DNA from: a virus
Taxonomy: Duplodnaviria; Caudoviricetes
IMG/VR virus record: IMGVR_UViG_3300042387_001262
Span: 1 to 30,692 of that record
DNA length: 30,692 nt
Reading direction: 5' to 3' (one strand)
Translations under genes and position numbers: made by a program
The notes under the pieces: model-generated
What the model saw: only the letters and a program-made list of their open reading frames with translations
Database searches by the model: none
What the model was told of the DNA's origin: nothing
Part shown: piece after piece, positions 2,056 to 22,180 of the stretch
Numbering within the stretch: the stretch's first letter is position 1
Layout: each line of letters begins with the position of its first letter

Positions 2056-2060
2056 CAATA

Positions 2061-5301: not shown

Positions 5302-6612
5302 ATGGCATCCCAACGCATCGACCTCGGCTACTCGCCCCGGGACTGGCAGCGCAAGGTTCACCGCGGCCTCAAGCGATTCTCGGTGGTGGTCATTCATCGG
5401 CGTGGTGGCAAGACCGTCATGGCCGTGATGGAGTTGGTCCACGCGGCGCTCAAATGCACCAAGCCCGAGGGGCAGTTCGGGTACGTCGGGCCACTGCTCA
5501 AGCAGACCAAGAAAATCGCGTGGCGCTACCTCAAGCGATTCAGCTTCCCCGTCCCCGGCATCAAGATCAACGAATCCGAACTGAGCGTCACGTTCCCCAA
5601 CGGGGCGACTATCACCTTGTTCGGCGCGGACAACCCGGACTCCCTGCGCGGACTCTACTTCGACGGCGTGGTGCTGGACGAGGTCGCCGACATGAAGCCC
5701 GAGACCTGGGGCGAGATCCTGCGACCGGCCATCGCAGACCGCCGCGGGTGGGCCATCTTCATCGGCACGGTGAAGGGCGTGAACCTGCTGAGCGAGAAAT
5801 ACTTCGAGGCCATCAACAACCCCGACGAGTGGTTCGCGGCGAACTACACCTGCTACCAGACCGACGCACTGAGCCCCGACGAGATTGAATCCATGCGCAA
5901 AGACATGAGTGAGAACCAGTTCCGACAAGAGATGCTGAACGACTTCAGTGCATCCAACCCCGACCAGTTGATTGCCTTCGAGACCGTGCAGGAAGCAGTG
6001 GGCAAGCACCTGCCGGCAAGCGATTACGAGCACTCACCGCGGATCCTGGGGGTGGACGTCGCACGCTACGGTGACGACAAGTCGGTCATCTTCGGTCGTC
6101 AGGGCCTCGTATCGTTCGAGCCTCAGGTGTACCAAGGGCTCAACAACATGGAGCTTGCGGCCAAGGTGGCGCAGGCGATTGTCGAGTGGAAACCGGACGC
6201 GGTGTTCATCGACGCGGGACGTGGCGAGGGGGTGATAGACCGTTTGCATCAACTCGGGCATGCTGTTGTGGGCGTGAACTTCGGTGGCTCACCGACTAAG
6301 CCCCAGTTCGTGAACAAGCGTGGGGAGATGTGGTTTGACATGAGTCAGTGGTTGAAAGCCGGTGCGTCGATTCCGAACATCCCGCAACTCAAGATCGAGT
6401 TGTGCGCCCCCACCTACAGCTACGCCAACGCGGCGAACAAGTTCGAACTCGAGAGCAAGGACGACCTCAAGAAACGCGGCCTGCCCTCACCGGACATCGC
6501 CGATGCCCTGGCACTGACCTTCGCGTTCCCCGTCGCTCCGTCACGCGGACCGGGGGCGAACCTGCACGCCGGTGGGCATGCGCTCACCGAGTACGACCCT
6601 TTCGCTGCTTGA
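5302..6612 (+). CDS. Terminase large subunit
   Basis: YSPRDWQ adenine motif, Walker A HRRGGKT, LRG..DGVVLDE Walker B, IGT coupling motif, RNase H-like GVDVARYGDD and SPDIADALAL. Confidence 0.96.
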   Translation: MASQRIDLGYSPRDWQRKVHRGLKRFSVVVIHRRGGKTVMAVMELVHAALKCTKPEGQFGYVGPLLKQTKKIAWRYLKRFSFPVPGIKINESELSVTFPNGATITLFGADNPDSLRGLYFDGVVLDEVADMKPETWGEILRPAIADRRGWAIFIGTVKGVNLLSEKYFEAINNPDEWFAANYTCYQTDALSPDEIESMRKDMSENQFRQEMLNDFSASNPDQLIAFETVQEAVGKHLPASDYEHSPRILGVDVARYGDDKSVIFGRQGLVSFEPQVYQGLNNMELAAKVAQAIVEWKPDAVFIDAGRGEGVIDRLHQLGHAVVGVNFGGSPTKPQFVNKRGEMWFDMSQWLKAGASIPNIPQLKIELCAPTYSYANAANKFELESKDDLKKRGLPSPDIADALALTFAFPVAPSRGPGANLHAGGHALTEYDPFAA

Positions 6613-6644
6613 CGGATACGCAACGCCCCCAACGATGGAATCAC

Positions 6645-7100
6645 ATGGCACTCACCTTCCAACGCGAGCGATTCACACCCGCACTGGGAGAGGAGGCACG
6701 TCCGCTGATCCAAGGGCACCACGAGGAGGTGAGCGGACCCATCGCAGACCTGCCGGCGAGGATTCCGTTCGAGCAATACGAAGCGCTCGAGAATGCGGAC
6801 CGTTTGCGGGTGTTCACTGCACGCCGGGACGCGATGCTCGTTGGGTACAACGTGTTCGCGATGGCGATTCACCACCAGCACGGTGTGCGCTGCGCATTCC
6901 ACGACACGCTTTTCCTGCACCCATCCGAGCGAAGGGGGACATCAGGCATGCGTTTCCTGCGCTTCTGTGACGAGCAACTGCAGGCCGATGGCGCGTTCTT
7001 CGTCACTCAGCACGTGAGCGCTGGAGTGAACATCAAGCCCCTGCTCGAGCGTATGGGCTATCAGGCAGCGGAGACGATTTACATCAAACGATTGAACTGA
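6645..7100 (+). CDS. GNAT-family acetyltransferase
   Basis: VFTARRDAMLVGY beta-hairpin, LFLHPSERRGTSG acetyl-CoA motif A, LLERMGY motif B; ATG at 6645. Confidence 0.8.
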   Translation: MALTFQRERFTPALGEEARPLIQGHHEEVSGPIADLPARIPFEQYEALENADRLRVFTARRDAMLVGYNVFAMAIHHQHGVRCAFHDTLFLHPSERRGTSGMRFLRFCDEQLQADGAFFVTQHVSAGVNIKPLLERMGYQAAETIYIKRLN

Positions 7101-7102
7101 CT

Positions 7103-7408
7103 ATGGGACTTGAAACAGCAACTCTAATCGCATTGGCAGCAGGCACCGTTGCTGGTGGTGGCGCTGCAATGATCGCGGCAAACCAGAACAAGCCGAACAT
7201 CCCGAAGAGCCCGGGTGACCCCGGGCTGAAGAACCAGGACGACATCGCCACCAACGCCCAGTCGCGTCAGGACCGGGCACGCAAGCAGGCGCTCGCTGCC
7301 ACCGGTCGCACCGACACCATCCTGACGGGCTCACAAGGCCTGGGCGGGAACGGTCAGCAGCAGCAGCAGAACTTCCAGAACATGGGGAAAACCCTCCTCG
7401 GCCAGTAA
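7103..7408 (+). CDS. Small virion-associated protein preceding the portal
   Basis: MG start, Ala/Gly hydrophobic N-terminus, GRTDTILTG..G and C-terminal KTLLGQ typical of the pre-portal gene in this phage group. Confidence 0.7.
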   Translation: MGLETATLIALAAGTVAGGGAAMIAANQNKPNIPKSPGDPGLKNQDDIATNAQSRQDRARKQALAATGRTDTILTGSQGLGGNGQQQQQNFQNMGKTLLGQ

Positions 7409-7411
7409 CGC

Positions 7412-9076
7412 ATGGAGACTAAACGCCAGCAGCTAGAGAAGATGCGCATGATGCTCCGCACGGAGCGTGAGTCGTTCATGCCGCACTGGCGTGACCTGTC
7501 CGACTATGTGATGCCCCGCCGCGCACGCTACACCATCGCCGAGCGCAACAAGGGGGACCGGCGCAACAAGAAGATCATCGACTCCACCGCGACGCTCGCC
7601 ATGCGAAACCTCATGGCCGGGATGATGTCGGGGCTCACATCCCCTGCACGCCCGTGGTTCTCGCTCACCACGCCCGACCCAGGACTCGCCGAGTTCGGGC
7701 CGGTCAAATCGTGGCTCGACGATGTGACCAAGCGGATGCGCACGATCTTCCTCAAGTCGAACCTCTACAACGCACTGCCGCTGCTCTACTGCGACCAAGG
7801 CCTGTTCGGCACCTCGGCCATGGCAGTGCTCGAGGATGACCAGGACGTGATCCGCTGCTACTCGTTCCCCATCGGTTCGTACTGCCTGGCGCAGTCACAC
7901 CGGCACACCGTGGACACCTTCGTGCGCGAGTACGCGATGACGGTGCGACAACTGGTGCAGCGCTTTGGCTTGGAGAACTGCTCCCGCTCGGTTCAAGACC
8001 AGTACAACAACGGCAACATGGAGACGTGGATCGACGTGGCGCACATGATCCACCCCAACGAGGATCACGACCCGGAGAAGCTACACGCCAAACACAAGCG
8101 CTTCTCCTCCTGCTACTGGGAACTGGGCTCGGACGAAGAGGGCAAGTTCCTCGACGAGTCTGGGTTCGACGAGTTTCCGGTCATGGCTCCGCGGTGGAAC
8201 TTGACCGGCGAGGACGTCTACGGGCACTCCCCGGGGATGGACGCACTCGGGGACATTCAGCAACTGCAGGCGATGCAACGTCGCATGATTCAGAGCATCG
8301 ACAAGATGGTGAACCCGCCGATGGTGGCGCCAACCAGCATGCAGAACAAGAAAGCCTCGCTGCTGCCTGGCGACATCACCTACGTGGACACCACGCAGGG
8401 CTCGACCGGGTTCAAGCCGGCGCACGAGATTCGCATGCCCCTGCAGGAGTTGAGCGTGCTCGTCAACGAGACGCAGATGCGCATCAAGCGGTGTTTCTAT
8501 GAGGACCTCTTCCTCATGCTCGCCAACTCCGACCGGCGCCAGATTACCGCACGCGAGATCGAGGAGCGGCACGAGGAGAAGCTTCTGATGCTGGGGCCCG
8601 TGCTCGAGCGGCAGAACGAGGACCTGCTCGACCCGCTGATCGACCGCACGTTCGCCATCATGCTTCGCCGGGGTGAGGTGCCTGCGCCCCCGCCCGAAAT
8701 CTCGGGGCAGGAGCTCAAGGTCGAGTACATCAGCATCATGGCGCAGGCGCAAAAGCTTGTGGCCACTGCCGGCCTCGAGCGCTTCGTCGGGTTCGTCGGT
8801 AACCTCGCCGCGGCCAAGCCTGACATCGCCGACAAGCTCGACTTCGACCAGGTCGTTGACGAGTACTCCGACATGCTCGGGGTGCCACCGAAGATCGTCC
8901 GCGCAGACGAAGAGGTGGCCAAGATCCGTGAAGGGCGTGCGCAACAGATTGCCGCGCAGCAACGCGCCGAGCAACTGCAGCAGATCGCGCAGGGGGCCAA
9001 GCTTCTCTCCGAGACCGACATGAACGGTGATTCAGCGCTCACGCGCATGGCAGCAGCGCAAGGAGGGATGCGATGA
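7412..9076 (+). CDS. Portal (head-tail connector) protein
   Basis: 554 aa; IIDSTAT.A...L.AGMMSGLTSPARPWF, RW...GEDVYG.SPGM.AL.D, TAREI.ER.EEKL..LGPVLER. Confidence 0.95.
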   Translation: METKRQQLEKMRMMLRTERESFMPHWRDLSDYVMPRRARYTIAERNKGDRRNKKIIDSTATLAMRNLMAGMMSGLTSPARPWFSLTTPDPGLAEFGPVKSWLDDVTKRMRTIFLKSNLYNALPLLYCDQGLFGTSAMAVLEDDQDVIRCYSFPIGSYCLAQSHRHTVDTFVREYAMTVRQLVQRFGLENCSRSVQDQYNNGNMETWIDVAHMIHPNEDHDPEKLHAKHKRFSSCYWELGSDEEGKFLDESGFDEFPVMAPRWNLTGEDVYGHSPGMDALGDIQQLQAMQRRMIQSIDKMVNPPMVAPTSMQNKKASLLPGDITYVDTTQGSTGFKPAHEIRMPLQELSVLVNETQMRIKRCFYEDLFLMLANSDRRQITAREIEERHEEKLLMLGPVLERQNEDLLDPLIDRTFAIMLRRGEVPAPPPEISGQELKVEYISIMAQAQKLVATAGLERFVGFVGNLAAAKPDIADKLDFDQVVDEYSDMLGVPPKIVRADEEVAKIREGRAQQIAAQQRAEQLQQIAQGAKLLSETDMNGDSALTRMAAAQGGMR

Positions 9077-9369
9077 ATGCCGCTGATCCACAGAAGGTTG
9101 CCGAGGTCGAAGCCAAGCTCAAGCGCAAGGCCAATGTCGAAGAAGACGACCTGCGCTTTGTCATGTCCACCCCGCAAGGCCGGCGCGTGCTCTGGCGCGT
9201 GCTCTGCAATACCGGCATGCGCCGCTCAAGCTACACCGGCAACTCCGAGACCTATTTCCGTGAGGGCGAGCGCAACGTGGGGCTTCGCCTGCAGCAGGAG
9301 ATCGAGCGCATCGCGTTCGACGAGTATCTGCTGATGCTCAAAGAAGCACGTTCTCACGAGTCCGCCTGA
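9073..9369 (+). CDS. Bbp19-like head-associated protein
   Basis: DL.FVMSTPQGRRVLWRVL...G...TYFREGERNVGL; post-portal position. Confidence 0.8.
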   Translation: MNAADPQKVAEVEAKLKRKANVEEDDLRFVMSTPQGRRVLWRVLCNTGMRRSSYTGNSETYFREGERNVGLRLQQEIERIAFDEYLLMLKEARSHESA

Positions 9370-9377
9370 GTTTGTGG

Positions 9378-9409
9378 TGGACGATTCTGACTCCATGTTC
9401 CCACGCTGA
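9378..9409 (+). promoter_or_regulatory. Putative late promoter TGGACG-N18-CACGCTGA (copy 1)
   Basis: Same boxes and spacing as 15753-15784; ATG 7 nt after CACGCT. Confidence 0.6.
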
Positions 9410-9414
9410 AAATC

Positions 9415-9702
9415 ATGGCATCCGCGGTCATTCCCAAGACGAACGCTCAGGATGGGTCCACGGCTGGACCCGAAGCCGCTGCCCTGCAGATTGGCGAGAT
9501 TGCGAGCAACCGCACCACGGGAAAGATCTACATGCGCAAGGACGGCGACACGCTCGCATCGTTCAAACCCGTCGAGGATTTGGTAGTCGCTGACGTGGCG
9601 GGAGCAGCACCACTTAACTCACCCGCTTTGACTGGCACACCGACAGTCAACGGTCAACCTGTTCTGAAGAACGGTGACCAGTTAACCGGTGGAACCTACT
9701 GA
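9415..9702 (+). CDS. Short fibre/decoration protein with a shared N-terminal attachment domain
   Basis: IPKTN..GS...P....LQIGEIASN...GKIY; APLNSPALTGTPT fibre motif; ends GGTY. Confidence 0.75.
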   Translation: MASAVIPKTNAQDGSTAGPEAAALQIGEIASNRTTGKIYMRKDGDTLASFKPVEDLVVADVAGAAPLNSPALTGTPTVNGQPVLKNGDQLTGGTY

Positions 9703-9713
9703 GAGAAAACAAC

Positions 9714-10661
9714 ATGGCTAACCCCATCATCCCAAAAACAAACGGTACGCAAGGATCAACGAACGTACCTTCATCCAGCGATCTGCAGATCGCCGAAATC
9801 GCGTCCAACGCGTTTCTCGGTCGTCTGTTCCTCAAGACAGAAGACCACTCCGTCAAGGAGTTCAAGGCAGTCTCCGACATCGCACCCAGCGACATCGGCG
9901 CGGTGGCTTCCTCGAGCGTTGGTCAGGCCAACGGTGTAGCACCGCTCGACGGCAGTGCGAAGATCGACTCAAGCTACCTGCCCTCCTATGTCGATGACGT
10001 GGTGGAGTTTGCCAACGTCGCCTCGTTCCCCTCCCCTGGGGAGACCGGCAAGATCTATGTGTCAACGGACGAGAACGTCTCCTACCGCTGGAGCGGTTCG
10101 CAGTACGTTGCCATCATCTCTGGTGGCGCTCCGACCGGCAACGCCGGCGGGGACTTGGGCGGGACGTACCCGAACCCCACGGTCACCGGGCTCCAAGGCG
10201 AGTTGGTGTGGTCCACGACCCCTTCGACCGGGCAAGCGCTCGTGTACGACGGGTCAGGATGGGGACCGCAGACGCTGAGCTTCCCTGACACGGGGATGAC
10301 AGAACTGAGCGGGGACGTGAGCGCCTCGGGCAGTGGATCGGTGTCCGCTACGGTCACCAAGATCCAGGGCCAGACGGTGTCCTCGAGCGCTCCTTCCAGC
10401 GGACAGGTCCTCGCGTGGGACGGTGCGCAGTGGGTGGCGACAACGCCTCAGAACTTCATCGACACGGGCATCACCGAGCTCACGGGCGACGTGACGGCAT
10501 CGGGCAATGGTTCGCAATCGGCTTCGGTTGTGGCCTTGCGCGGCGTTGGGATCTCCTCGACCGGTCCTTCGAGCGGACAAGCGCTCGTGTATGACGGCTC
10601 CGGCTACGCTCCGACGAGCGTGGTGAAAGAGGGCGACGTCATCTCTGGCGGAACCTACTAA
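9714..10661 (+). CDS. Fibre protein with a shared N-terminal domain and three ~50-aa repeats
   Basis: Same N-terminus; GVAPLD..AKI...LPSYVDDV; three GD(L/V)...P.(S/T)GQ(A/V)L.(Y/W)DG repeats; ends GGTY. Confidence 0.8.
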   Translation: MANPIIPKTNGTQGSTNVPSSSDLQIAEIASNAFLGRLFLKTEDHSVKEFKAVSDIAPSDIGAVASSSVGQANGVAPLDGSAKIDSSYLPSYVDDVVEFANVASFPSPGETGKIYVSTDENVSYRWSGSQYVAIISGGAPTGNAGGDLGGTYPNPTVTGLQGELVWSTTPSTGQALVYDGSGWGPQTLSFPDTGMTELSGDVSASGSGSVSATVTKIQGQTVSSSAPSSGQVLAWDGAQWVATTPQNFIDTGITELTGDVTASGNGSQSASVVALRGVGISSTGPSSGQALVYDGSGYAPTSVVKEGDVISGGTY

Positions 10662-10674
10662 GCCGCGACAGTTT

Positions 10675-10709
10675 GCCGGTCCCACCTTCCACGGGTGGGG
10701 CCGGTATTT
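10675..10709 (+). terminator. GC-rich hairpin, possible partial terminator
   Basis: GCCGGTCCCACC-TTCCACG-GGTGGGGCCGGT followed by ATTT. Confidence 0.5.
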
Positions 10710-10729
10710 GAACCGAACTTCTTCAAGCC

Positions 10730-12838
10730 ATGCCGACCAATCCGATCATCCCCAAGAGAAACTCAACCGCAGGCAGCGCCACGGGCCCGCAGGCATCGGC
10801 ATTGCAACTGGGTGAAATCGCATCCAACACTTTCACGGGCAAGCTGTACATCAAGAAGGAAGACGGCACGGTCGGTGAGATCAGCGGCAGCACGTTCACC
10901 CCGACCCTCACCAGCATCACGGGCAACGGGTCCACCACAACTTTCAGCCTCAGCGGCTACTCGAGCAACGACCCAAAAAGCTACCTCGTCGTGCTCGGCG
11001 GCGTGCCTCAATCCCCTGACGGCACCGCGTACACCATCAGCAACGGGCAGATCGTTTTCTCGAGCGCACCGGCAAACGGTGTCACGGGCTTCATCGTTGG
11101 CTACCAGGCCAACGTCACGCCCAGCAGCAACTTCGCCACCGAGACCAAGACCGCCACCGCTGGGCAGACGGTGTTCACCCTCACCTCGGCCACCTACACC
11201 CCGAGCAGCGGGTCGCTTCGCGTGTTCCGCAACGGTCTCCTGCTCACCCCGGGCGACGATTACGCCGAGACCAACTCGAGCACGATCACGCTCACCTCTG
11301 GCGCCACGGTGAGCGACCAGTTTATCTTCCTGGTGGGACGCATCGCGAACGACTCCACGGTGTACCAACTGGGTGCAACCGGATCCATCTCACGCGGGGT
11401 AGCCTCGAAGCTCGGCGATGTCGTATCGGTAAAGGACTTCGGTGCGGTCGGTAACGGCACTACGGACGACACCGCGGCAATCCAGGCGGCGATTGATGCG
11501 CTTGGAACAGCCGGCGGCACCGTGACGATTGGGAACGACGGCAAGTATTTGGTTGGCTCGTCGCTGACAATCAAGGCCAAGGTGCGGTTGAAAGGGGAAT
11601 GGAGGAATCCAGACACCGTAGGGACGGCGAACGCACAGACATTTAGCACTGCCGGGTCCTGTATACGTCTCGCCTCGTCTGCGACGATTAACATGCAGCA
11701 AGGGGCTTCGATAGAGGATCTACTCATCTATCGAAACGGAATGACCTTCCCGGTTGAGAGCGGCACTGGCTATGCCGGAACGGCAATCACGGCGACAGGC
11801 AGTTCTGCGTCGCTCAGGAACTTGCTGGTGATGGGCTTCAACAAGCTATTTTATGGGCCAGGACAACGGCACGTTATCGACCGGGTGTACGGGGACAATA
11901 ACAACGGGATCGAGATCACGAACTCTCCCGACGTTTGCTACATCTCAAACTGCCACATGTGGCCGTTCGCCTCGGACACTACGATCTACCCGAGCACCGG
12001 AACCTACCGTTCGGGAATCGCTTATTACTCGCACGACACAGCAGACTGGGTAAAGTTCACCAACTGCTTCTCATACGGGTACAAGACTGGGTTCAAGATC
12101 TACAACGCGAACTCAAACACACTGATTGGTTGCGGCACGGATCAGAACTTCAATGTCACAGCCACCCACACCGATAGCATTGGGTTTGACATCAGCGGAA
12201 ACGCTAACGACACCAAACTGATTGGGTGTCAATCTGCCGCGTGCTGGTACGGCATCGTTGTTAATACCATCGCAAGTCAGAGCACCTTCATCGACTCGTT
12301 CTCCACGTGGTATCCAAAAGTTGCCGGCATCTATGTTCAGCAAGGGCGAGTTTCAATCGCTGGAGGAACAATCCGCAACACGGACTTGGGTATCTCGACC
12401 GACAATGCCTCTTCTGTGATTCACGTTGCCAACGTGAAGTTCAACGACATCGCAACCAGGCCGATCTATTCGTCCGTCGCAAACAGCACGATCTTTGTGT
12501 CCGAATGCAACTTCGGAAACTTCGCTTCCACCAGCGGCGGCGCGCTGGGATACAACACGACTGCTCAAGTCATCGCGTCGTCAGATCCACTTGTCATCCC
12601 AATGACCGGGAATGTGTTCCGAGTCTCTGGGACAACTGCGTTCGGTTCGATGAGATGGGGATGGATGGGCAGAGAGGTCACCCTGATCTTCAATGGTTCC
12701 CTAACCGTCTATTCTGCAATCTCTACCAACCAGAACATGCGCCTCTCTGGAGGAGCTAACTTCTCGGCATCGGCGAACACATCACTGACGTTAAAGCACG
12801 ATGGAGTTCAATGGTACGAAACCGGACGCAGCGCATAG
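10730..12838 (+). CDS. Tailspike/fibre with a pectate-lyase-like beta-helix (putative depolymerase)
   Basis: Shared N-terminal domain, two beta-rich linker domains, VSVKDFGAVGNGTTDDTAAIQAAID pectate_lyase_3-type start, beta-helix repeats. Confidence 0.85.
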   Translation: MPTNPIIPKRNSTAGSATGPQASALQLGEIASNTFTGKLYIKKEDGTVGEISGSTFTPTLTSITGNGSTTTFSLSGYSSNDPKSYLVVLGGVPQSPDGTAYTISNGQIVFSSAPANGVTGFIVGYQANVTPSSNFATETKTATAGQTVFTLTSATYTPSSGSLRVFRNGLLLTPGDDYAETNSSTITLTSGATVSDQFIFLVGRIANDSTVYQLGATGSISRGVASKLGDVVSVKDFGAVGNGTTDDTAAIQAAIDALGTAGGTVTIGNDGKYLVGSSLTIKAKVRLKGEWRNPDTVGTANAQTFSTAGSCIRLASSATINMQQGASIEDLLIYRNGMTFPVESGTGYAGTAITATGSSASLRNLLVMGFNKLFYGPGQRHVIDRVYGDNNNGIEITNSPDVCYISNCHMWPFASDTTIYPSTGTYRSGIAYYSHDTADWVKFTNCFSYGYKTGFKIYNANSNTLIGCGTDQNFNVTATHTDSIGFDISGNANDTKLIGCQSAACWYGIVVNTIASQSTFIDSFSTWYPKVAGIYVQQGRVSIAGGTIRNTDLGISTDNASSVIHVANVKFNDIATRPIYSSVANSTIFVSECNFGNFASTSGGALGYNTTAQVIASSDPLVIPMTGNVFRVSGTTAFGSMRWGWMGREVTLIFNGSLTVYSAISTNQNMRLSGGANFSASANTSLTLKHDGVQWYETGRSA

Positions 12839-12844
12839 CACCAC

Positions 12845-12910
12845 ATGAACGCCCAACACAACCCGCCGCCCATTGACATCGACATGCTCTGGTTCGACCC
12901 ACGGAACTGA
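12845..12910 (+). CDS. 21-aa micro-ORF, copy 1 (MNAQHNPPPIDIDMLWFDPRN)
   Basis: Duplicated at 14428-14493 with mostly synonymous differences. Confidence 0.55.
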   Translation: MNAQHNPPPIDIDMLWFDPRN

Positions 12911-12940
12911 GCGACACGGCAACAAGCATAACGACAACCT

Positions 12941-14392
12941 ATGAGCAAAGCATTTAATAACGCCACCAAGCTGAACAAACTTGTCAGCGTCACCGACTTC
13001 GGGGCGAAAGGCGACGGGGTCACGGACGACACAGCGGCGATTCAGGCTGCGATTGATTCACTAGGGGTCGCTGGCGGCACTGTTGTGATTCCAAACGGCA
13101 TGAGATGCGTCTTGGACTCTACCTTAGTTGTAAAGCCAAACGTCGGAGTTCAAGGCCCACATTTGTATGTAGGCAGCCCGCAGGACAACTCGTCTGCCAA
13201 CTACAGTCTTGTGGGCGGATCGCTCATCTTGAGCGGAACGCAAACGATTTCGATGAAAGGCGGAGCGTCTCTGTCTGGTCTGTTGATTTACAGAAAAGGG
13301 ATGACGTTCCCTCAGACCAGCGTGTCTGCATGGGTTGGTACTGCAATCACAGCAGATGGTGATGACGTTGTTGTCAACAACTGCATGATCCTTGGATTTG
13401 ACAAGGGTTTCTACTCGTATGGCCATCAACGTCCGCGTTTAACAAGTGTCTACATGGACAATGTCAACTGCGTCGAAATCGCCGAGTGCTATGACATTGC
13501 ATACATTCTCCAGTGCCACTGCTGGCCGTTTGCAACCATTGCAAATGGAACTCCTTTGATACGCCCCGGCACGGCATACCATTTTCATGATGGAGGAGAC
13601 TGGAACAAGATTACAAACTCCTTTTCATACGGATACCTTCGTGGCTTGTTCATTTCTAATGCCAACTCAATAACAGCTACAGGATGCGGGTTCGATAACG
13701 TTCCCGGAGGCCATCCAAACTCCATTGGCATTAGCGTTGCAAACGGATGCGAAGACATAAAGCTACTTAGTTGCCAAACGGCTGGGCAAGCTACTGCCGG
13801 GGTGTTCATCAACAACGCGTCTGGTTCAATTCCGCTTGTCACATTTATTCAGAACCACAGCGCGTGGGGAGGATCTTCTCACGGAGTTTTGATTTACGGT
13901 GGTGATGCAATCATTAACGGATGTTCAATTCGTGATGTGACAAATGTGGTTAGCGTTACAAGCTCAGCCTCAAGAGTCATGTTGGATAATTCTTGGGTCA
14001 AAGGCATTGCCTCAACGATAGTAAACGCAACGGTTGCGACGTCAAATGTTGTATTGGGCAACGGGAATGTCTATACAAACTTTGGCGGAGATCCAACTAG
14101 CAATTTGAGTTTAGCGTCTGTTGCAAGTGCTAGTGTTCTACTGCTTCCAAACACAAACTCGGCGTTTCACATCACCGGAACAACCAACATCGGAACACTT
14201 CTTCACGCATGGCCAGGAAGAGTTGTTACGTTGCTGTTTACCAATAACCTGACTGTCTTGCACAGCGGCCCAGGAACCGTTGGATGTATGCAGTTAAACA
14301 ACAATGCAAACTTTTCAGCTCAAAATGGAAGCTCGCTAACCTTAATCGGAGTCGGCGGCGAAGAGTGGATTGAAATCGGGCGATCCGTATAA
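12941..14392 (+). CDS. Second pectate-lyase-like tailspike, lacking the anchor domain
   Basis: VSVTDFGAKGDGVTDDTAAIQAAID; colinear with the C-terminal part of 10730-12838 (LLIYR.GMTFP, CH.WPFA, DW.K.TN.FSYGY, W.E.GRS); lower GC. Confidence 0.85.
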   Translation: MSKAFNNATKLNKLVSVTDFGAKGDGVTDDTAAIQAAIDSLGVAGGTVVIPNGMRCVLDSTLVVKPNVGVQGPHLYVGSPQDNSSANYSLVGGSLILSGTQTISMKGGASLSGLLIYRKGMTFPQTSVSAWVGTAITADGDDVVVNNCMILGFDKGFYSYGHQRPRLTSVYMDNVNCVEIAECYDIAYILQCHCWPFATIANGTPLIRPGTAYHFHDGGDWNKITNSFSYGYLRGLFISNANSITATGCGFDNVPGGHPNSIGISVANGCEDIKLLSCQTAGQATAGVFINNASGSIPLVTFIQNHSAWGGSSHGVLIYGGDAIINGCSIRDVTNVVSVTSSASRVMLDNSWVKGIASTIVNATVATSNVVLGNGNVYTNFGGDPTSNLSLASVASASVLLLPNTNSAFHITGTTNIGTLLHAWPGRVVTLLFTNNLTVLHSGPGTVGCMQLNNNANFSAQNGSSLTLIGVGGEEWIEIGRSV

Positions 14393-14427
14393 GCGGATCA
14401 CACGCAGGCAGCATCATCAAGCATCCT

Positions 14428-14493
14428 ATGAACGCCCACCAAAATCCACCACCCATTGACATCGACATGCTCTGGTTCGACCCACGCAACTGA
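14428..14493 (+). CDS. 21-aa micro-ORF, copy 2 (MNAHQNPPPIDIDMLWFDPRN)
   Basis: See copy 1; CCTATG start context like the other late genes. Confidence 0.55.
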   Translation: MNAHQNPPPIDIDMLWFDPRN

Positions 14494-14494
14494 C

Positions 14495-14791
14495 ATGCAC
14501 CACCTCGCTCACTCCCTTATCGCTCTCGCCATCCAGTCCGTCATCGCAATCGCGACCGGCAACTGGTGGACCGGCGCTGCCGCGGGGTCGGCCTACTTTG
14601 TGGGGCGCGAGTACGCCCAAGCGGAGTATCGCAACATCGAGCACCACTACGGTGGGCGCCGAGCGAACATGCCCTTCTGGGGCGGGATGCAGGCCCGGGC
14701 GTGGACGCTCAAGGGCATCACAGACTTCGTGCTGCCGACACTCGCGGTGATCGGCACAGCACTCTTAGCCAGGAGATTCAACCACCACTGA
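14495..14791 (+). CDS. Small membrane protein (98 aa)
   Basis: ATG at 14495; hydrophobic N- and C-terminal segments around a GREYAQAEYR core. Confidence 0.7.
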   Translation: MHHLAHSLIALAIQSVIAIATGNWWTGAAAGSAYFVGREYAQAEYRNIEHHYGGRRANMPFWGGMQARAWTLKGITDFVLPTLAVIGTALLARRFNHH

Positions 14792-14794
14792 TTC

Positions 14795-15742
14795 ATGCCA
14801 CTGACCACACTTCAACATCCAATGATGGCCTTCGACGGAGGGGCCTTGGGATTCCGTAACGCAATCATCAACGGGGACTGCCGCATCGCGCAGAGAGGCG
14901 GGGGCAGTATCGTCAACGGGTCTGTGGTGTACGCGGGATGCGACCGCATCTACGTCTACGCTGCAGGCTTCAGCGCCTTGAGTGGGTCGATCTACCAGTC
15001 AAGCGGATCGGCGACGTCCTCGACCTTCTGCCAGACCGCGAACATCACCAGCACGGGATCTGGAGTCGTCTCGTTCGGTCAGCGCATCGAGCAGAAGAAC
15101 TGCCAGCACTTCGCCGGCAAGACGGTCATCGTTTCAATGAAGGTGTACCAGGACAGTGGCGCGGCAGTCACCGCGGCCATCGGGCTCGGCAAGGCAGGTG
15201 CGGCGGACAACTTCAGCAGTGTGTCCACTCTCGGCGAGAGCACGGTCGGCAGCATTCCTTCGGCGACATGGGTCAGCATCAGCAAGAGTTTCGCGGTGAG
15301 CGCTTCGGACGTTGCCAACGGGATTGTGCCCTACATGGCGTTCACGGTGGGAGCGGTCACGAACAAGGGGTTCAACATCGCCGACTTCCAGATCGAGGTC
15401 GGGCCCGCTGCAACACCCTTCGAGACCAAGCCCTTGAGTTTGGAGTTGGCGCAGTGCCTGCGCTACCTGCAACCGGTGGGCGAGTTCGCCGGCAACTTCA
15501 TCACCACCACCGCGGTGCGCGGATCCATCCGCTACTTCGCGCCGATGCGCTCGGCGCCGATCCTCACCGCGGGGACGATGCAGGCAGAGGGCGTGAGCAA
15601 CCTCGCCATCTCTTCACCGTCGATCGCCAACGCAAGCTACCTGGCGGCGACGTTCAACGGGACCGTGACCGGCGCGACCGCAGGACAAGCGGCTCGAGTG
15701 GTCACGACCACAGGCAGTTCGTGGCTTTCCGCGGAACTGTAA
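14795..15742 (+). CDS. Virion/fibre protein with a carbohydrate-binding-like domain
   Basis: FRNAIINGDCRIAQRG start, QRIE, QIEVG..ATPFE....ELAQC.RY motifs common in phage tail proteins. Confidence 0.75.
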   Translation: MPLTTLQHPMMAFDGGALGFRNAIINGDCRIAQRGGGSIVNGSVVYAGCDRIYVYAAGFSALSGSIYQSSGSATSSTFCQTANITSTGSGVVSFGQRIEQKNCQHFAGKTVIVSMKVYQDSGAAVTAAIGLGKAGAADNFSSVSTLGESTVGSIPSATWVSISKSFAVSASDVANGIVPYMAFTVGAVTNKGFNIADFQIEVGPAATPFETKPLSLELAQCLRYLQPVGEFAGNFITTTAVRGSIRYFAPMRSAPILTAGTMQAEGVSNLAISSPSIANASYLAATFNGTVTGATAGQAARVVTTTGSSWLSAEL

Positions 15743-15752
15743 GTTTTTTGCA

Positions 15753-15784
15753 TGGACGGTTTTCAAACCATCTCACCACGCTGA
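15753..15784 (+). promoter_or_regulatory. Putative late promoter TGGACG-N18-CACGCTGA (copy 2)
   Basis: Identical boxes to 9378-9409 and 10 of 18 spacer positions shared; upstream of scaffold and capsid genes. Confidence 0.6.
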
Positions 15785-15793
15785 GAGAAAGCT

Positions 15794-16468
15794 ATGTCTG
15801 ACACCTTAATCGCCGGCTCTCAAGCTTCACTCACGAGCGGGCAAACCAGTGCTGACGGAACGAACCAAGCAACCCAGCAGGCCGCGGCGAGTGCCGATGG
15901 TCAAACGCAGGGACAGCAACAGTCCGCCACGTCAGCGGCCACAACCCAGAGCAATGCCACCAGTGGCAGTGCCCAGCAAACGCAGACCCAGAACCAAGCT
16001 TACGAGCTCAAGGTGCCTGAGGGTGCGAACCTGGACGCCTCATACCTCGAGCACACCAAGGCCCTGGCCAAGGAACTTGGACTCTCGCAGGAGGCAGCAC
16101 AGAAACTGGTCGAACGCGATGCGGGACTCATGTCCTCAGCAAGCGAGCGAAACATGGCCCAGGTGCGTGAGAAAACCGAACAGTGGGCAAAGGATGCCGA
16201 AGCCGACAAAGAGATCGGCGGGGGCAACTTTCAGTCGAGCGTGACCGACGCGAAAACCGCGTTGGATAAGTTCGGCACCCCCGAGTTCAAAAACCTGCTG
16301 AACCAGTCCGGGGTAGGGAATCATCCTGAGTTGATCAGGTTGCTTTCCCGGGTCGGTAAAGCCATGCGCGAGGACAAGATGGTGACCACATCATCCCAAC
16401 CCGCACGTGCCCAAAAGTCATTCGCCGAGGCTTTCTACCCGAGCATGTCGGCTAACAAATCAGAGTAA
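15794..16468 (+). CDS. Capsid scaffolding protein
   Basis: Low-complexity Q/T/S N-terminus, YELKVPEG, AKELGLSQEAAQKL, G.GNHPELIRLLSRVGKAMRED; immediately before the capsid gene. Confidence 0.85.
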   Translation: MSDTLIAGSQASLTSGQTSADGTNQATQQAAASADGQTQGQQQSATSAATTQSNATSGSAQQTQTQNQAYELKVPEGANLDASYLEHTKALAKELGLSQEAAQKLVERDAGLMSSASERNMAQVREKTEQWAKDAEADKEIGGGNFQSSVTDAKTALDKFGTPEFKNLLNQSGVGNHPELIRLLSRVGKAMREDKMVTTSSQPARAQKSFAEAFYPSMSANKSE

Positions 16469-16477
16469 CAACCTACT

Positions 16478-17473
16478 ATGGCAACACTTGCATCCAATGT
16501 GGCAACGCTCGCGGATCACGCGAAGCGCCTCGACCCAGACGGCAAAGTTCCGATGATCGTGGAACTTCTCCGTCAACGTAACTCGATCCTCGACGACATG
16601 TTGTGGAAGGAAGGGAATCTCCCGACCGGACACCGCACGACGGTTCGTACCGGTCTTCCGACCGTGACGGCACGCCGGCTCAACGAAGGGGTCGTTCCCT
16701 CGAAATCGACCACCGCTCAAATCGACGAGCAGTGCGCGATGTTCGAGGCAATCTCAGAAGTTGACGCTGACCTCGTCAAACTCAACGGCAACGACGCAGG
16801 CTTCCGCCTCTCAGAGGCTTCCGCCTTCATCGAAGCGATGAACCAGACGATGGCGCAGACGCTCTTCTACGGGAATGCCGGGATCACACCCGAGTACTTC
16901 ACCGGGTTCGCGCCTCGCTACGCTGCCCTGTCGGGAACCAACTCGCAGAACATCCTGAGCGCCGGTGGCGCCGGTTCGGACAACACGTCCATCTGGCTCA
17001 TCGCCTGGGGTGAGAACACGGTCAGCGGGATCTATCCCAAGGGCTCGAAAGCCGGCCTCATTCACGAGGACCTCGGTGAGCAGATGATCCAGACGGGAGT
17101 CGGGATCGGGACGGGGCGCATGAAGGCGTTCATTGACCGGTGGCAATGGAAGTGCGGGCTTGCCGTGCGCGACTGGCGCTACGCGGTTCGTATCGCCAAC
17201 ATCGACGTGAGCAACCTCGTGACGGAATCCGGTGCTGCCGACCTCATCAAGCTGATGATCAAGGCGATCCACCGCTTGCCGGATCTCTCCTCGGGACGTC
17301 CGGTGTTCTACTGCAACCGCACGGTGCGCGAGATGCTCGACATCCAGGCGCTCACCAAAGCGGCCTACCAGTTGAACATCGACAACGTGGACGGGAAACC
17401 GGTCACCAAGTTCCGCGGCATCCGCATCGAGACCTGCGACCAGATCCTCGAAACCGAATCCGTCGTCGCCTAA
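16478..17473 (+). CDS. Major capsid protein (BPP-1 Bbp17/epsilon15-like)
   Basis: 331 aa; N.ILDDM.W.EGNLPTGHRTTVRTGLP, GLAVRDWRYAVRIANID, FRGIRI..CDQIL.TE. Confidence 0.93.
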   Translation: MATLASNVATLADHAKRLDPDGKVPMIVELLRQRNSILDDMLWKEGNLPTGHRTTVRTGLPTVTARRLNEGVVPSKSTTAQIDEQCAMFEAISEVDADLVKLNGNDAGFRLSEASAFIEAMNQTMAQTLFYGNAGITPEYFTGFAPRYAALSGTNSQNILSAGGAGSDNTSIWLIAWGENTVSGIYPKGSKAGLIHEDLGEQMIQTGVGIGTGRMKAFIDRWQWKCGLAVRDWRYAVRIANIDVSNLVTESGAADLIKLMIKAIHRLPDLSSGRPVFYCNRTVREMLDIQALTKAAYQLNIDNVDGKPVTKFRGIRIETCDQILETESVVA

Positions 17474-17480
17474 CCCTAAC

Positions 17481-17500
17481 GCCCCCGGGCAACCGGGGGC
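17481..17500 (+). other. Perfect hairpin with a GCAA tetraloop after the capsid gene
   Basis: GCCCCCGG-GCAA-CCGGGGGC; no U tract. Confidence 0.7.
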
Positions 17501-17529
17501 ACAACCAACAATCCACAGAGAATCATCCT

Positions 17530-17982
17530 ATGATCTTCGACAGACAAAACATGTTCAGTGACGGGCAGCAAATCAGCGGCACGTCGGCAACCGGTTCAAC
17601 GGATTGCATCGACCTCGGTCCCTTCTACAGCGGAGTGGGCGGAGCGAACCTCGTGAAAGACCTCGGCGTGGGCGAAGACGTGTACCTGCAGGTGACTGCA
17701 TCGGGCGTGTCGGGCACCTCGCCAACGGTCACCATCGCGATTGAAACCGACGACAACGCGGCGTTCAGTTCGCCGGCAACGCTCGCCTCCTACGGGCCGA
17801 TTGCGCTGCCTGCTGCTGGCGGACACGTCTTCCACGTGTGCTTGCCATTCGGCGACTACCAGCAGTTCGTGCGCTTGAAGTTCACGCAGGGCGGGACATC
17901 CCCCGTGGCGACCTACAAGGCCGCACTGGTGCGTGGCGTTCAGGCGGTGCGCAACTACACGGACGCAATCGTCATCAGCTAA
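17530..17982 (+). CDS. Capsid cement/decoration protein (Bbp16-like)
   Basis: MIFD...FSD.Q......STD.IDLG...DLGVGEDVYL....TDDN..FSSP...FVRLKF; ATG at 17530. Confidence 0.8.
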   Translation: MIFDRQNMFSDGQQISGTSATGSTDCIDLGPFYSGVGGANLVKDLGVGEDVYLQVTASGVSGTSPTVTIAIETDDNAAFSSPATLASYGPIALPAAGGHVFHVCLPFGDYQQFVRLKFTQGGTSPVATYKAALVRGVQAVRNYTDAIVIS

Positions 17983-17991
17983 GGCTAGGCC

Positions 17992-18189
17992 ATGTCACAC
18001 GTTCGCGTCAGAGTCAAACGGGCCGGGTTCATCGGCAACCAGTTACGACGCCCCGGCGACGAGCTCACGCTCGCCGACGAGAAGTTCGTCAGCAAGGTGT
18101 GGATGGAGATCATCCCCATGCCGAAAGCGGAATCTCCCGCGCCCGAACCGGACGCGAGCGAGGACCCCAAACCGAAGCGCAACAAGTAG
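17992..18189 (+). CDS. Small virion-associated hypothetical protein
   Basis: VRVKRAGFIGNQLRRPGDE.......W.E pattern typical of the gene after the cement protein. Confidence 0.7.
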   Translation: MSHVRVRVKRAGFIGNQLRRPGDELTLADEKFVSKVWMEIIPMPKAESPAPEPDASEDPKPKRNK

Positions 18190-18195
18190 TCGAGG

Positions 18196-18215
18196 GGGGC
18201 GGGGAAACCCGCCCC
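18196..18215 (+). other. Hairpin with a GAAA tetraloop before the tail adaptor gene
   Basis: GGGGCGGG-GAAA-CCCGCCCC followed by a pyrimidine run. Confidence 0.6.
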
Positions 18216-18225
18216 TCTTCCTTCT

Positions 18226-18903
18226 ATGGCCACATCCATCGTTCAGATCTGCAACACCGCTCTCGCCCGGATCGGCGTGGCGACGTTCATCGACTCCATC
18301 AACGAGGCTTCGCAGGAAGCGCAGGTGTGCAAGCTTCTCTACGAGCAATGCCGCGACCGCGTGCTGCGCGAGGTGCATTGGCCATTCGCACGCGCCTTCG
18401 CCACGCTCGCCCTGGTGAGCGGCAACGAGGGCAAACCGTGGACGAACGAGTGGCAGTACGCCTACCGCTACCCCACGGACGCGGTGGTGGTGCGACGGGT
18501 GCTCACGCCACTGGGGCCCCGGCAGGCGATTGCAGAACCCTTCGACGTGGGCCAGGACGCATCGGGCCGGCTCATCTTCGCCAACATGAAGGACGCGGCC
18601 ATCGAGTACACCAAGCGGGTGGAAGACCCCGCGCAGTTCGATCCCTCGTTCACTTCAGCCCTCTGCTGGCTACTGGCCGCGGAGATCTCGATGCCCCTGT
18701 CGGCAGTGGACGGACTGCGCAAGCAGGCGCTGCAGATGTACCAGGCCGAACGCGGGATTGCCGAGCGCATCTCGTTCAACGAATCCGAGCCGGTGCGCGA
18801 CATCGACACCGAGTTCCTCAACACCCGGGGCTACGCCTCGAACAACTTTGCTGGGGATGATGCCGTGAGCAAACTCTTCCCCAGCGGCTTCACTGTTTCC
18901 TGA
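18226..18903 (+). CDS. Tail tubular protein A / head-tail adaptor
   Basis: S.VQICN.AL.RIG...I.SI.E.S.EA..C...Y...RD..L...W.FA; W.YAY.YP.D; FDP.F..AL...LA. Confidence 0.88.
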   Translation: MATSIVQICNTALARIGVATFIDSINEASQEAQVCKLLYEQCRDRVLREVHWPFARAFATLALVSGNEGKPWTNEWQYAYRYPTDAVVVRRVLTPLGPRQAIAEPFDVGQDASGRLIFANMKDAAIEYTKRVEDPAQFDPSFTSALCWLLAAEISMPLSAVDGLRKQALQMYQAERGIAERISFNESEPVRDIDTEFLNTRGYASNNFAGDDAVSKLFPSGFTVS

Positions 18904-21635
18904 TGCCAAGCAACATCCAACGCTCATTCGCCGGCGGGGAGATTGCCCCCGCGTTGTACGGTCGATCCGACCAAGGCAAGTACCAGTCCGGGCTTCGCCG
19001 GTGCGAGAACTTCACGGTGATGCGCCACGGCGGTGTCAGCAATCGCCCGGGCACCAAGTACATCGCGCAGGTCAAAGACAGCAACCGCAAGGTCCGGCTG
19101 ATGAAGTTCGTCTTCAACGCGCAGCAGACCTACGTGCTCGAGTTCGGGCACGAATACATCCGCGTCATCAAAGACGGTGTGCAACTGACCTCAGGTGGAA
19201 GCCCTTACGAGATTGCAAGCCCCTATCAAGAGGAGCACCTGCGCGACATCCAGTACGTGCAGTCGGCAGATGTCATCACGCTTGTGCATCCCAACTACGC
19301 CCCGCGCACGCTCTCGCGCACCGGCGACACCTCGTGGACGCTCGCCCAGATCACCTACGCCCCGAGCATCACGCCGCCGAGCAAGGTGGTCATCAACGGC
19401 ACGGCAGGCAACGCGAGCAGCTACGTGGTCACCTGCGTGAAGGAGTTGACCTACGAGGAATCACTGCCGAGCGACCCTGTCGGCAACACCAACGCAACGG
19501 CATCGACCTCGAACAAGAACACGATCACCGTGGGCGCCACCAAGGGCATCTACGAGTTCAACGTCTACAAGCGCATCAACGGGGTGTACGGCTACGTTGG
19601 CACCACGCGCCCCTTGGACAACAAGATGATCGTGGACTACGAGCGCAGGACGCGAGTCAGTGCGCCGACGGCAAACGGCATCTTCTTCACGCTCCCGGAT
19701 AACCACGGCTACCTGGTCAACGAATACTTGGTCATCGCCGATGCGACCAACACCGAGCTCAACAACCCGGCGTCGTCCTACCGAATCTACTCGGTCAACG
19801 GCAACGTCGTAGAGATCTCGGACGCCATCGGCGGAACGGGGCCTGTTAGCGGCGTGGCGACGGTTGGCAATCGGCTCACCCGGACGGCGACCACAGTCAC
19901 CATGAACTTCCCGACCGGGCACGAGTACAACGCAGGCGAACCGCTCTTCCTCAGCGGATCCTACCTGAGCGGGCAGTTCACCGTGCTCACCTCCGCAGCC
20001 AACTCCATCACCTTTGCCAACCCCGATTCCACCAAGCTCACGCAGGGCAGTGCCGTCGTGGCGATGAACTCGACCTTCGTGGACGATGGCATCTCGGCAG
20101 ACACTACCGACACGCCTCCGCAGGCGCGTGACCCGTTCCCAACCTCGGGCAACTACCCGGCCACGGTGTCCTACTTCCAGCAGCGCTCGGTGTTCGCCAG
20201 CACCACCAACGAACCGGAAAAGGTGTGGCTCTCGCGCACGGGCAACTTCAAGAACTTCTCCATCCGCTCGCCGCTCCAGGACGACGATGCCATCACCTTC
20301 ACCATCGCCGGCAGGCAGGTGAACGAGGTGCGCCACCTCATCGAGGTCGGCCAGATGCTCATCCTCACCTCTGGCGGGGAATGGCGCGTGATGGGCGACT
20401 CGGACGGGGTGATCAAACCCGCGGCCATCAATCTCAAGCAGGAAGGCTACTCGGGCGCGGCCAAGATCACGCCCATCGTAATCGGCAACAACGCCCTGTA
20501 CATCCAGGCCCGGGGCAACATCGCACGCGACCTGCGCTACGACCTGCAGACCGATGGCTACAACGGGCGAGACTTAACCGTGTTCGCCGCCCACATGTTC
20601 GACGGGTATCAGTTGGTGACGTGGGACTACGCTCAGATCCCGCACTCCATTGTGTGGACGGTACGCGATGACGGGGTGCTCCTGGGGCTCACCTACGTGC
20701 GCGAGCACGACGTGTGGGGGTGGCACCGTCACACCACGGACGGGGTGTTCGAGGACGTCGTATGCGTCCCGGAGGGGACCGAGGACGCCGTCTACGTGGT
20801 GGTGCGCCGCAGTCTCAACGGGGTGCCGGTACGCTACATCGAGCGCTTTGCCCCGCGCTACACCTCGCAGATGATCGACTTGGCACGCGATGCGTTCTTC
20901 GTCGATTGCGGTGCCACCTACGACGGGCTCAACACCGATTCCACGCACACCCTGACGGTGAGCGCTGGGACCGGCACGAGCGTGCGCGATGACATGTTCA
21001 TCGACGCGAACAAGGACACGTTCACCCCCTACAGTGTGGGCGATGCGTTCCAGGTTGGCGGAATACGATTCAAGGTCATCGAGTTCATCGACGAGCGCAG
21101 AGTGAAGGTGCTCCCCTCTCAGGACGTTGCGAGCGTGCCGCTTGTCTCCAGCCAGTGGACGCGCATGGTGGACTCTTTGTCCGGACTCGACCACCTCGAG
21201 GGCAAGGAGGTCGCCATCCTCGCTGACGGGGACGTGCATCCTTCGCGCACCGTGATCGAGGGCAGCATCACGCTGAACCGCCCGTGCGGGGTGGTCCACG
21301 TGGGGCTCGCCTACACCTCGACGATTCAGACTCTCGCCATCGACAACCCGGGCGGTGAGACGCTCTTCGACAAGAACAAGATCGTCTCCAAGGTCTCCAT
21401 GCTCGTGGAGTCTTCCCGCGGCATCTACGCCGGCCCCGACGAGGCGCATCTGCGCGAACACAAGCAGAGAAAGCTCGAGGACTACGGGGAGCCCACGCGG
21501 CTCACCACGGGCCTGGTGGAGATTCAGACGGTGGCGCAGTGGGACAAGCAGGGCCTGGTGATGGTGCAGCAGAAAGATCCGTTGCCCATCTCCGTCTTGG
21601 CAGTTGTCCCGCAGGTGTCCGTGTCATCAAGATAG
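18903..21635 (+). CDS. Tail tubular protein B / nozzle
   Basis: QRSFAGGEIAP.L.GR.D, N......GGV..RPGT, QSADV...HP, YP..V.YFQQR, EHDV.GWHRH.TDG, GLDHLEG.EV.ILADG. Confidence 0.9.
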   Translation: MPSNIQRSFAGGEIAPALYGRSDQGKYQSGLRRCENFTVMRHGGVSNRPGTKYIAQVKDSNRKVRLMKFVFNAQQTYVLEFGHEYIRVIKDGVQLTSGGSPYEIASPYQEEHLRDIQYVQSADVITLVHPNYAPRTLSRTGDTSWTLAQITYAPSITPPSKVVINGTAGNASSYVVTCVKELTYEESLPSDPVGNTNATASTSNKNTITVGATKGIYEFNVYKRINGVYGYVGTTRPLDNKMIVDYERRTRVSAPTANGIFFTLPDNHGYLVNEYLVIADATNTELNNPASSYRIYSVNGNVVEISDAIGGTGPVSGVATVGNRLTRTATTVTMNFPTGHEYNAGEPLFLSGSYLSGQFTVLTSAANSITFANPDSTKLTQGSAVVAMNSTFVDDGISADTTDTPPQARDPFPTSGNYPATVSYFQQRSVFASTTNEPEKVWLSRTGNFKNFSIRSPLQDDDAITFTIAGRQVNEVRHLIEVGQMLILTSGGEWRVMGDSDGVIKPAAINLKQEGYSGAAKITPIVIGNNALYIQARGNIARDLRYDLQTDGYNGRDLTVFAAHMFDGYQLVTWDYAQIPHSIVWTVRDDGVLLGLTYVREHDVWGWHRHTTDGVFEDVVCVPEGTEDAVYVVVRRSLNGVPVRYIERFAPRYTSQMIDLARDAFFVDCGATYDGLNTDSTHTLTVSAGTGTSVRDDMFIDANKDTFTPYSVGDAFQVGGIRFKVIEFIDERRVKVLPSQDVASVPLVSSQWTRMVDSLSGLDHLEGKEVAILADGDVHPSRTVIEGSITLNRPCGVVHVGLAYTSTIQTLAIDNPGGETLFDKNKIVSKVSMLVESSRGIYAGPDEAHLREHKQRKLEDYGEPTRLTTGLVEIQTVAQWDKQGLVMVQQKDPLPISVLAVVPQVSVSSR

Positions 21636-21645
21636 GAGAACCACT

Positions 21646-22155: not shown

Positions 22156-22180
22156 GAACCTTAAGGACTAGAGATTTCGT

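Follow-up and report, generated by a model that had tools for sequence, protein, structure and literature searches.

The 21-codon open reading frame that stands behind each of the two tailspike genes of the virus analysed here belongs to a genuine, unannotated micro-gene family of freshwater-phage tailspike cassettes, which is narrow in range, strongly selected and accessory. The stretch of DNA that we analysed (the window, 30,692 nucleotides) is a whole 30.7-kb virus record, and near-identical DNA is present in lake-water metagenomes. Its genes include those for a terminase, a head-tail connector, a GP7 capsid protein and a nozzle (Pfam and PHROG matches), and its capsid protein is 55-56% identical to those of phiV10-type podoviruses. 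The features that concern us are the following:

10730..12838, + strand: tailspike 1, 702 aa (PF12708; PHROG tail spike).
12536..12835, + strand: GRS-type C-terminal β-sandwich of tailspike 1, a candidate partner of the peptide (AlphaFold2 mean pLDDT 86.5).
12845..12910, + strand: micro-ORF copy 1, 21 aa, 6 nt past the tailspike 1 stop and 30 nt ahead of tailspike 2.
12872..12900 (= 14455..14483), + strand: 29-nt core identical in both copies, a candidate crossover homology arm.
12941..14392, + strand: tailspike 2, 483 aa, anchorless, with a β-helix and a GRS-type C-terminal domain at 14090-14389.
14428..14493, + strand: micro-ORF copy 2, 21 aa, 35 nt past the tailspike 2 stop.
14495..14791, + strand: PHROG 1443 gene, 98 aa, hydrophobic (E 3.8e-28).

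Translation reproduces the two 66-nt ORFs and the 21-residue peptides given in the initial annotation. As had also been reported there, the copies differ at six nucleotides (codons 4, 5, 6, 7, 8 and 20), all in third codon positions, of which four are synonymous and two alter the amino acid, exchanging QH for HQ. The match returned by a repeat finder begins no more than 8 nt ahead of the ATG and closes at the stop, in agreement with the claim that similarity runs from ATG to stop, and the gene upstream of each copy is indeed a tailspike gene, both encoding a pectate-lyase-like β-helix (Pfam, PHROG). An exact core of 29 nt arose in none of 100 shuffles. Copy 1 lies in frame with tailspike 1, with one TAG between them, and the stop of copy 2 is 1 nt from the next ATG. 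Over its initial 59 nt, copy 1 is identical to the allele of one relative (L010), and 2 of 66 nt distinguish copy 2 from the second allele of another (L121). The window copies are therefore close alleles of one lineage and, because of this, are on their own weak evidence of selection. To judge from its sequence, copy 1 is likely to be a mosaic allele, its 5′ part being of the L010 type and its 3′ end and spacer of the type typical before a tailspike 2 gene.

We gathered the family by degenerate pattern scans and by two neighbour-based fetches (PHROG 1443 and the tailspike C-terminal domain), in which the peptide was not used as a query. The micro-ORF is present in 93 of 256 overlapping loci, and its carriers amount to 21 public contigs, 19 from IMG/VR (one being the twin of the window) and 2 from JGI, with 18 distinct 54-nt cores among them. 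The core consensus is PPPID[IM][DE][IML]LWFDPR[NS] followed by a stop. Peptide length ranges from 21 to 31 aa through a variable N-terminus, while the 15 C-terminal residues and the position of the stop are fixed. Over 15 codons and 17 cores, pS is 0.61 and pN 0.056, a ratio of 0.09 derived from pairwise counts that are non-independent; synonymous sites are close to saturation, and the variable columns at codon positions 1, 2 and 3 number 2, 1 and 13, of 15 each. For comparison, pN/pS is 0.09 for the lysin, 0.10 for the holin-like gene, 0.25 for PHROG 1443 and 0.50 for the N-terminus of tailspike 2. Analysed separately, the two copy positions give 0.089 and 0.098, and both are thus under selection. 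The other reading frames yield ratios of 1.6-8.6, and the aligned antisense frame one of 0.2 with stops in 8 of 17 cores. An in-frame ATG is found in 17 of the 18 distinct leaders, against 2 and 0 for the other frames. Codon identity varies freely at the conserved end, with stops divided equally between TAA and TGA (9 each) and the arginine codon being CGN in 11 and AGR in 7 of the 18 cores.

A DNA half-core search of all loci returned 16 distinct 48-mers, every one of them the motif plus a stop, and no frameshifted or extended copies. Across the family no conserved mRNA structure was found (consensus energy -2.2 kcal/mol, 0 of 8 pairs compensatory), and z-scores for single-strand folding were 0.1 to 2.2, so that stability is not above that of shuffles. 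The initial annotation had named frameshifts, stops, or conservation following an RNA or DNA structure as evidence that would speak against a gene; none of these appeared among the relatives, the exception being one lineage (L142/L143/L148) in which the ATG has been lost via fusion to a PHROG 1443 start remnant. The micro-ORF is almost certainly a selected coding sequence, and the protein-level conservation first proposed from two copies is borne out as purifying selection in the relatives by the ratio, ATG, stop and frame data. As a separate observation, at L121:2422-2440 and L135:4953-4970 the 5′ end of the allele resembles the 3′ end of the micro-ORF translated in a different frame, as if a former copy had left a rearranged remnant there.

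The family is new to the collections that we searched. Neither copy matched a family in Pfam, PHROGs or NCBIfam, searches in which a query of 21 aa has low power. Protein searches gave no match at E ≤ 10 for 102 candidates of 11-83 aa and one chance match, at E = 1, for 2591 longer candidates; none of 1.84 billion protein representatives carries the motif, and the ESM Atlas offered no lead (best 0.81). Since protein collections seldom contain ORFs so short, these blanks mean unannotated or unfused, not absent. INPHARED phages gave chance matches only (blastn, tblastn), and the GTDB genomes contain no pattern match and no PHROG 1443 relative, and hence yielded neither host nor prophage. Rfam has no match at the copies and two sub-threshold matches elsewhere, and promoter and terminator prediction at the copies gave no hit; a promoter reading was considered on account of a TTGACA within the core, yet no sigma-70 site was called. 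We discarded as unrelated chance pattern matches 33 of 40 stretches of one scan, L126/L137/L139 and L153, and, on inspection, 7 loci of one scan plus L246/L247. Small ORFs behind distant GRS domains in L166 and L170 bear a faint likeness to the motif and were left unscored by the profile. A full-text search of the literature for the motif strings returned no paper, and topical searches showed no description of the micro-ORF, both covering openly accessible main texts.

Most carriers are of a different phage type from that of the window. Their usual order is an anchored tailspike 1, an anchorless tailspike 2 beginning MSSK[AS]F, and PHROG 1443 and/or holin-like and lysozyme genes. Tailspike 1 of the window consists of a phage-specific N-terminal anchor, a shared region, a β-helix and a C-terminal β-sandwich ending in WYETGRSA. 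Its residues from about 130 to 290 are common to the tailspike 1 proteins of the carrier family, and it shares 90% nucleotide identity with the L010 tailspike over 11435-12910; tailspike 2 is 75% identical in nucleotides to that of L029. The tailspike 1 N-termini of the window and the carrier family, by contrast with the shared parts, have only 19-24 identical residues per 100. From these comparisons, the window phage likely acquired its cassette from the carrier family. The best structural match of the GRS-type domain is the C-terminal region of the Acinetobacter phage Solidus gp83 tailspike (Z 9.1, rmsd 3.1, 89 aligned; Foldseek E 1e-3). The two tailspikes of the window are paralogous (41% identical over 485 aligned residues). 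The N-terminus of tailspike 2, which reads MSKAF (in relatives MSSKAF), is short and conserved and by analogy is likely a docking peptide. The PHROG 1443 gene, for which lambda-like coliphages have 46-47% identical genes, is the usual right-hand boundary of the cassette (80 related loci) and has shrunk to a remnant in L123 and L142.

This arrangement resembles the branched dual-tailspike system of KP32 gp37/gp38, in the available part of whose description an N-terminal 'conserved peptide' is reported (PMC13352976). In both, an anchored tailspike 1 is paired with a tailspike 2 that lacks an anchor and has a short, conserved N-terminus. The KP32 docking peptide, as excerpted, is the N-terminus of the second tailspike itself, to which MS(S)KAF would be the counterpart here; the micro-ORF differs in being an extra, free-standing reading frame that has its own stop and precedes tailspike 2 by 12-30 nt.

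Several further features of these phages were observed. The C-terminal ends of the tailspikes in loci L041-L120 can be sorted into about 56 types that recur on tailspike 1 and tailspike 2 alike, which shows that domains have been shuffled very extensively in this lake phage family. In the window, the products of three consecutive tail genes (9415-9702, 9714-10661 and 10730-12838) start with similar segments, IPK.N...GS...LQ.GEIASN...G..Y.K..D, an indication that a virion-anchor module is repeated. A 196-nt direct repeat (1046-1241 and 1333-1528, 91% identical) doubles the end of a small early gene. Two ORFs of 447 and 412 aa (2010-3353 and 2063-3301) overlap almost completely in different forward frames; the latter we take, by eye, to be C5 DNA methyltransferase-like with a long insertion. 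Finally, among gene starts at 5302-22181 an SD-like motif is absent at 16 of the 18 tested and the leaders are A/C-rich, pointing to a host with SD-independent initiation.

In all 20 distinct contexts a tailspike gene precedes the micro-ORF, either directly or via one other micro-ORF (for the L128 context the tailspike was read from the near-identical L129). The spacing from the tailspike stop is 4-35 nt in 16 of these; of the remaining four, two stand behind another micro-ORF, one is ATG-less and one lies at a contig end. Downstream, where the following gene may be tailspike 2, PHROG 1443 or a holin-like gene, in 10 of the 20 contexts the micro-ORF stop overlaps the following start codon or is 1 nt away from it, and a spacer of 12-30 nt separates it from tailspike 2 where that gene follows. 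Two-copy records, with one copy per tailspike, make up 5 of 21; L065 and L169 each have a single copy, ahead of tailspike 2, whereas in L010, L075 and L129 the single copy is ahead of PHROG 1443 or holin. No copy was found outside the tailspike interval in the five whole records searched, each of which holds one or two inside it. The interval between tailspike and PHROG 1443 also houses other small ORFs. One group, found at L070:4780-4890, L075:5850-5933 and in L081, forms a second micro-ORF family of 27-36 aa with the core NLYDYCLETPVYQQLHEHW; it overlaps the start of the micro-ORF studied here in two loci and has a pN/pS of 0.05 (3 alleles). In L076, L080, L142, L054 and L061 the same slot is occupied by other small ORFs of 22-57 aa.

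The presence of the micro-ORF is patchy. It occurs in 9 of 80 PHROG 1443 loci (some of the 80 being truncated), and it stands behind 9 of the 13 distinct tailspike ends of GRS type as against 8 of 84 other ends, one wrong-frame row having been removed from the original 98. The GRS subtypes that it follows are only 34-81% identical; counted by end type, the figures are 3 of 5 GRS versus 6 of 51 others. Seven of the nine end types that have the micro-ORF are also found without it, and it is missing from 45 of 54 GRS-domain loci, 4 of them in the carrier family. Conversely, L065 and L070 are complete two-tailspike loci with intact copies and no GRS-type end. Because only 9 of 80 related loci carry the micro-ORF and 7 of 9 end types also occur in its absence, it is an accessory element, and the tailspike chaperone or plug suggested initially is not supported in an obligatory form.

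As to function, we tentatively favour, at somewhat below an even chance, that the peptide binds the tailspike as an optional cap or assembly helper. Modelled alone, it has no predicted fold (pTM 0.17), so it is likely a linear motif that acts with a partner; its exact C-terminus appears to matter, and we infer that it is translated in vivo. The unfolded product of 21-31 residues would bind the tailspike, most likely at its C-terminal β-sandwich. We rank this reading first because of the position of the ORF, the retention of one copy per tailspike and the enrichment behind GRS domains, and the fact that the ATG-losing lineage (L142/L143/L148) has no GRS-type tailspike also counts for it. Against it stand the intact copies of L065 and L070 and the many GRS loci without the micro-ORF, as well as the contrast between a near-invariant peptide and a widely varying partner domain, which would be easier to reconcile with an unvarying partner, for instance the ribosome or a host protein. 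The GRS association may, moreover, reflect physical linkage alone, because the conserved WYEIGRS codons give an upstream homology arm.

Helpers encoded behind receptor-binding proteins have precedents. Tfa-type proteins are tail-fibre chaperones encoded behind the fibre gene. In the excerpts available, gp27 of Alteromonas phage V22 and gp9 of A5 are described as intermolecular tail-fibre chaperones that are likewise encoded behind the fibre gene, and the A5 fibre is active without gp9 (PMC10579305). Like the micro-ORF, these two genes lie directly downstream of a receptor-binding protein, are mobile with the host-recognition module and can be dispensable; as excerpted, they encode folded domains cognate to one fibre tip. 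The micro-ORF peptide, in contrast to these and to Tfa, is unfolded, matches no family and is unchanged behind at least 9 tailspike ends.

A constant partner is central to a second reading, which we consider rather unlikely: that the ORF is a cis-acting nascent-peptide regulator whose conserved C-terminal residues make the ribosome slow or stall near the stop. The coupled translation of whichever gene comes next (tailspike 2, PHROG 1443 or holin) would then be tuned, setting the stoichiometry of tailspike and lysis proteins. The ribosome is such a constant partner, and the invariance of the last 15 residues and the stop, in peptides whose N-termini extend them from 21 to 31 aa, would be expected, as would the lack of any C-terminal extension even where the 12-30 nt spacers leave room. 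In half of the contexts (10/20) the next start is overlapped by the stop or is 1 nt away, and since the window genes are SD-poor (16/18 tested), translational coupling plausibly matters. Both copies are selected in two-copy genomes, though one trans-acting copy would do. Nevertheless, a conserved mRNA switch was not found (-2.2 kcal/mol, 0/8 compensatory), a result compatible with coupling that needs no structure, the three different downstream genes each function without the micro-ORF in other loci, and the identity of the stop codon is unconstrained. Pro-stop and RAPP/RAGP are ribosome-stalling endings, and the peptide has neither type. For the PPP stalling raised in the initial annotation in particular, conservation is anchored at the stop codon and not at PPP.

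Among characterized counterparts, TnaC is a bacterial ribosome arrest peptide that acts at termination. PepNL is another, according to the accessible part of its description (PMC11890864). The micro-ORF resembles both in being a very short ORF that precedes another gene and whose conserved residues extend to a fixed stop. It departs from them, as far as that description extends, in having no constant downstream gene, no conserved mRNA structure and no sequence likeness, and in residing in a phage late operon. A combined form, in which a portable 15-residue module stalling at termination would meter translation of the next tailspike or lysis gene while its codons double as the cassette crossover site, seems distinctly unlikely.

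The other constant partner would be a host protein. On this reading, also a rather improbable one, the peptide, made late, is a linear motif whose free C-terminus binds a protein of the host, its target being, for example, a defence sensor of tail proteins, a protease or an adaptor; it would travel with the cassette because both are host-strain specific. The patchy presence (9/80 loci) and the invariance of the sequence next to highly variable phage neighbours would be accounted for, as would the sufficiency of one slot, either before tailspike 2 (L065, L169) or after it (L010, L075, L129), and the carriage of the micro-ORF by two unrelated virion backbones (N-termini with 19-24 identical residues per 100). 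Weighing against a host target are the confinement of every copy to the tailspike interval in 5 of 5 whole records searched, the lack of a match to any described family in Pfam, PHROGs or NCBIfam, and the retention of two selected copies, which it leaves unaccounted for.

Whatever the peptide does, it is very probable, from comparison of the alleles, that the DNA of the micro-ORF serves as a crossover site for tailspike cassettes, with crossover taking place inside the ORF. The proposal that it provides a recombination anchor for cassette exchange is thus backed, by mosaic alleles and by one-tailspike relatives joined at the micro-ORF. The first copy of L121 and the second copy of L135 have a common upstream tailspike end and ORF 5′ end, and their cores and downstream genes differ; L169 is a multi-part mosaic of segments from several lineages. 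In L010 a tailspike-1-type gene is joined via the micro-ORF straight to PHROG 1443. The same order, tailspike-1-type gene, micro-ORF, PHROG 1443, is seen in a contig of run X8 that joins across 12868-14452, skipping 1583 nt, and L129 has one tailspike where L135 has two. In a four-gamete test 55 of 91 biallelic site pairs fail, a result that repeated change at near-saturated sites can mimic, and ORF segments correlate weakly with their flanks (rho at most 0.24). As to loss of tailspike 2 within the population of the window itself, contig depth over this gene relative to its flanks was 0.81, 0.83, 0.99 and 0.95 in four runs from which this DNA may come, values that are not copy numbers. The micro-ORF would be the right-hand crossover point at which tailspikes are swapped, added or dropped, the fixed first and second codon positions preserving the homology arm; recombination within the ORF would give rise to the mosaics and to the second copy of the window. 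The crossover role is probably a by-product, selection acting on the peptide.

A role as recombination hotspots has been proposed for conserved motifs on either side of the receptor-binding domain (Pas et al. 2023, PMC10408124), the GTTAVSL motif of Kuttervirus being one such (Sorensen et al. 2021, PMC8432352). In the available portions of these papers, as here, a short conserved stretch stands on either side of a variable tailspike domain in several phage groups; here the VSVxDFGAxGDG neck would form the left arm and the micro-ORF the right, and the mosaic joints of L121/L135, L169 and window copy 1 map to the micro-ORF, with the caveat of homoplasy. The published downstream motif is described there as a 20-nt non-coding, terminator-like sequence, and the upstream motifs lie inside the tailspike gene (PMC10408124, PMC8432352). 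Unlike the motifs so described, the micro-ORF arm is a separate gene, conserved at the peptide level with near-saturated synonymous sites, and no terminator was found at it. The micro-ORF misses at least one defining feature of each of the four systems compared.

That the locus acts purely as DNA or RNA (as recombination arm, terminator or binding site), its open frame being incidental, is very improbable and largely refuted. Mosaics do occur within the ORF, and one lineage retains the DNA without the ATG; however, near-saturated synonymous sites combined with fixed amino acids would erode DNA homology, the other frames have ratios of 1.6-8.6 or contain stops (antisense 8/17), and promoter, terminator and Rfam matches are absent at the copies. 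Extension of the tailspike C-terminus through stop read-through or frameshifting, to which the single TAG between tailspike 1 and the in-frame copy 1 of the window lends itself, is more improbable still, given that the micro-ORF shares the frame of the upstream stop in 8 of the 19 contexts that could be evaluated, close to the one in three that chance predicts, that 17 of 18 leaders supply it with an ATG, and that the motif occurs in no longer protein bar the one chance match at E = 1.

We stress that this peptide family, while new to the protein collections and literature searched, is constrained like a phage lysin. Therefore, tailspike cassettes contain selected micro-genes that gene callers miss. 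As the peptide is short enough to be synthesised, the three functional readings are separable by cheap experiments. For the phages themselves, the findings point to a mechanism of host-range shuffling in which selection on a tiny peptide would maintain a homology arm behind unrelated tailspikes.
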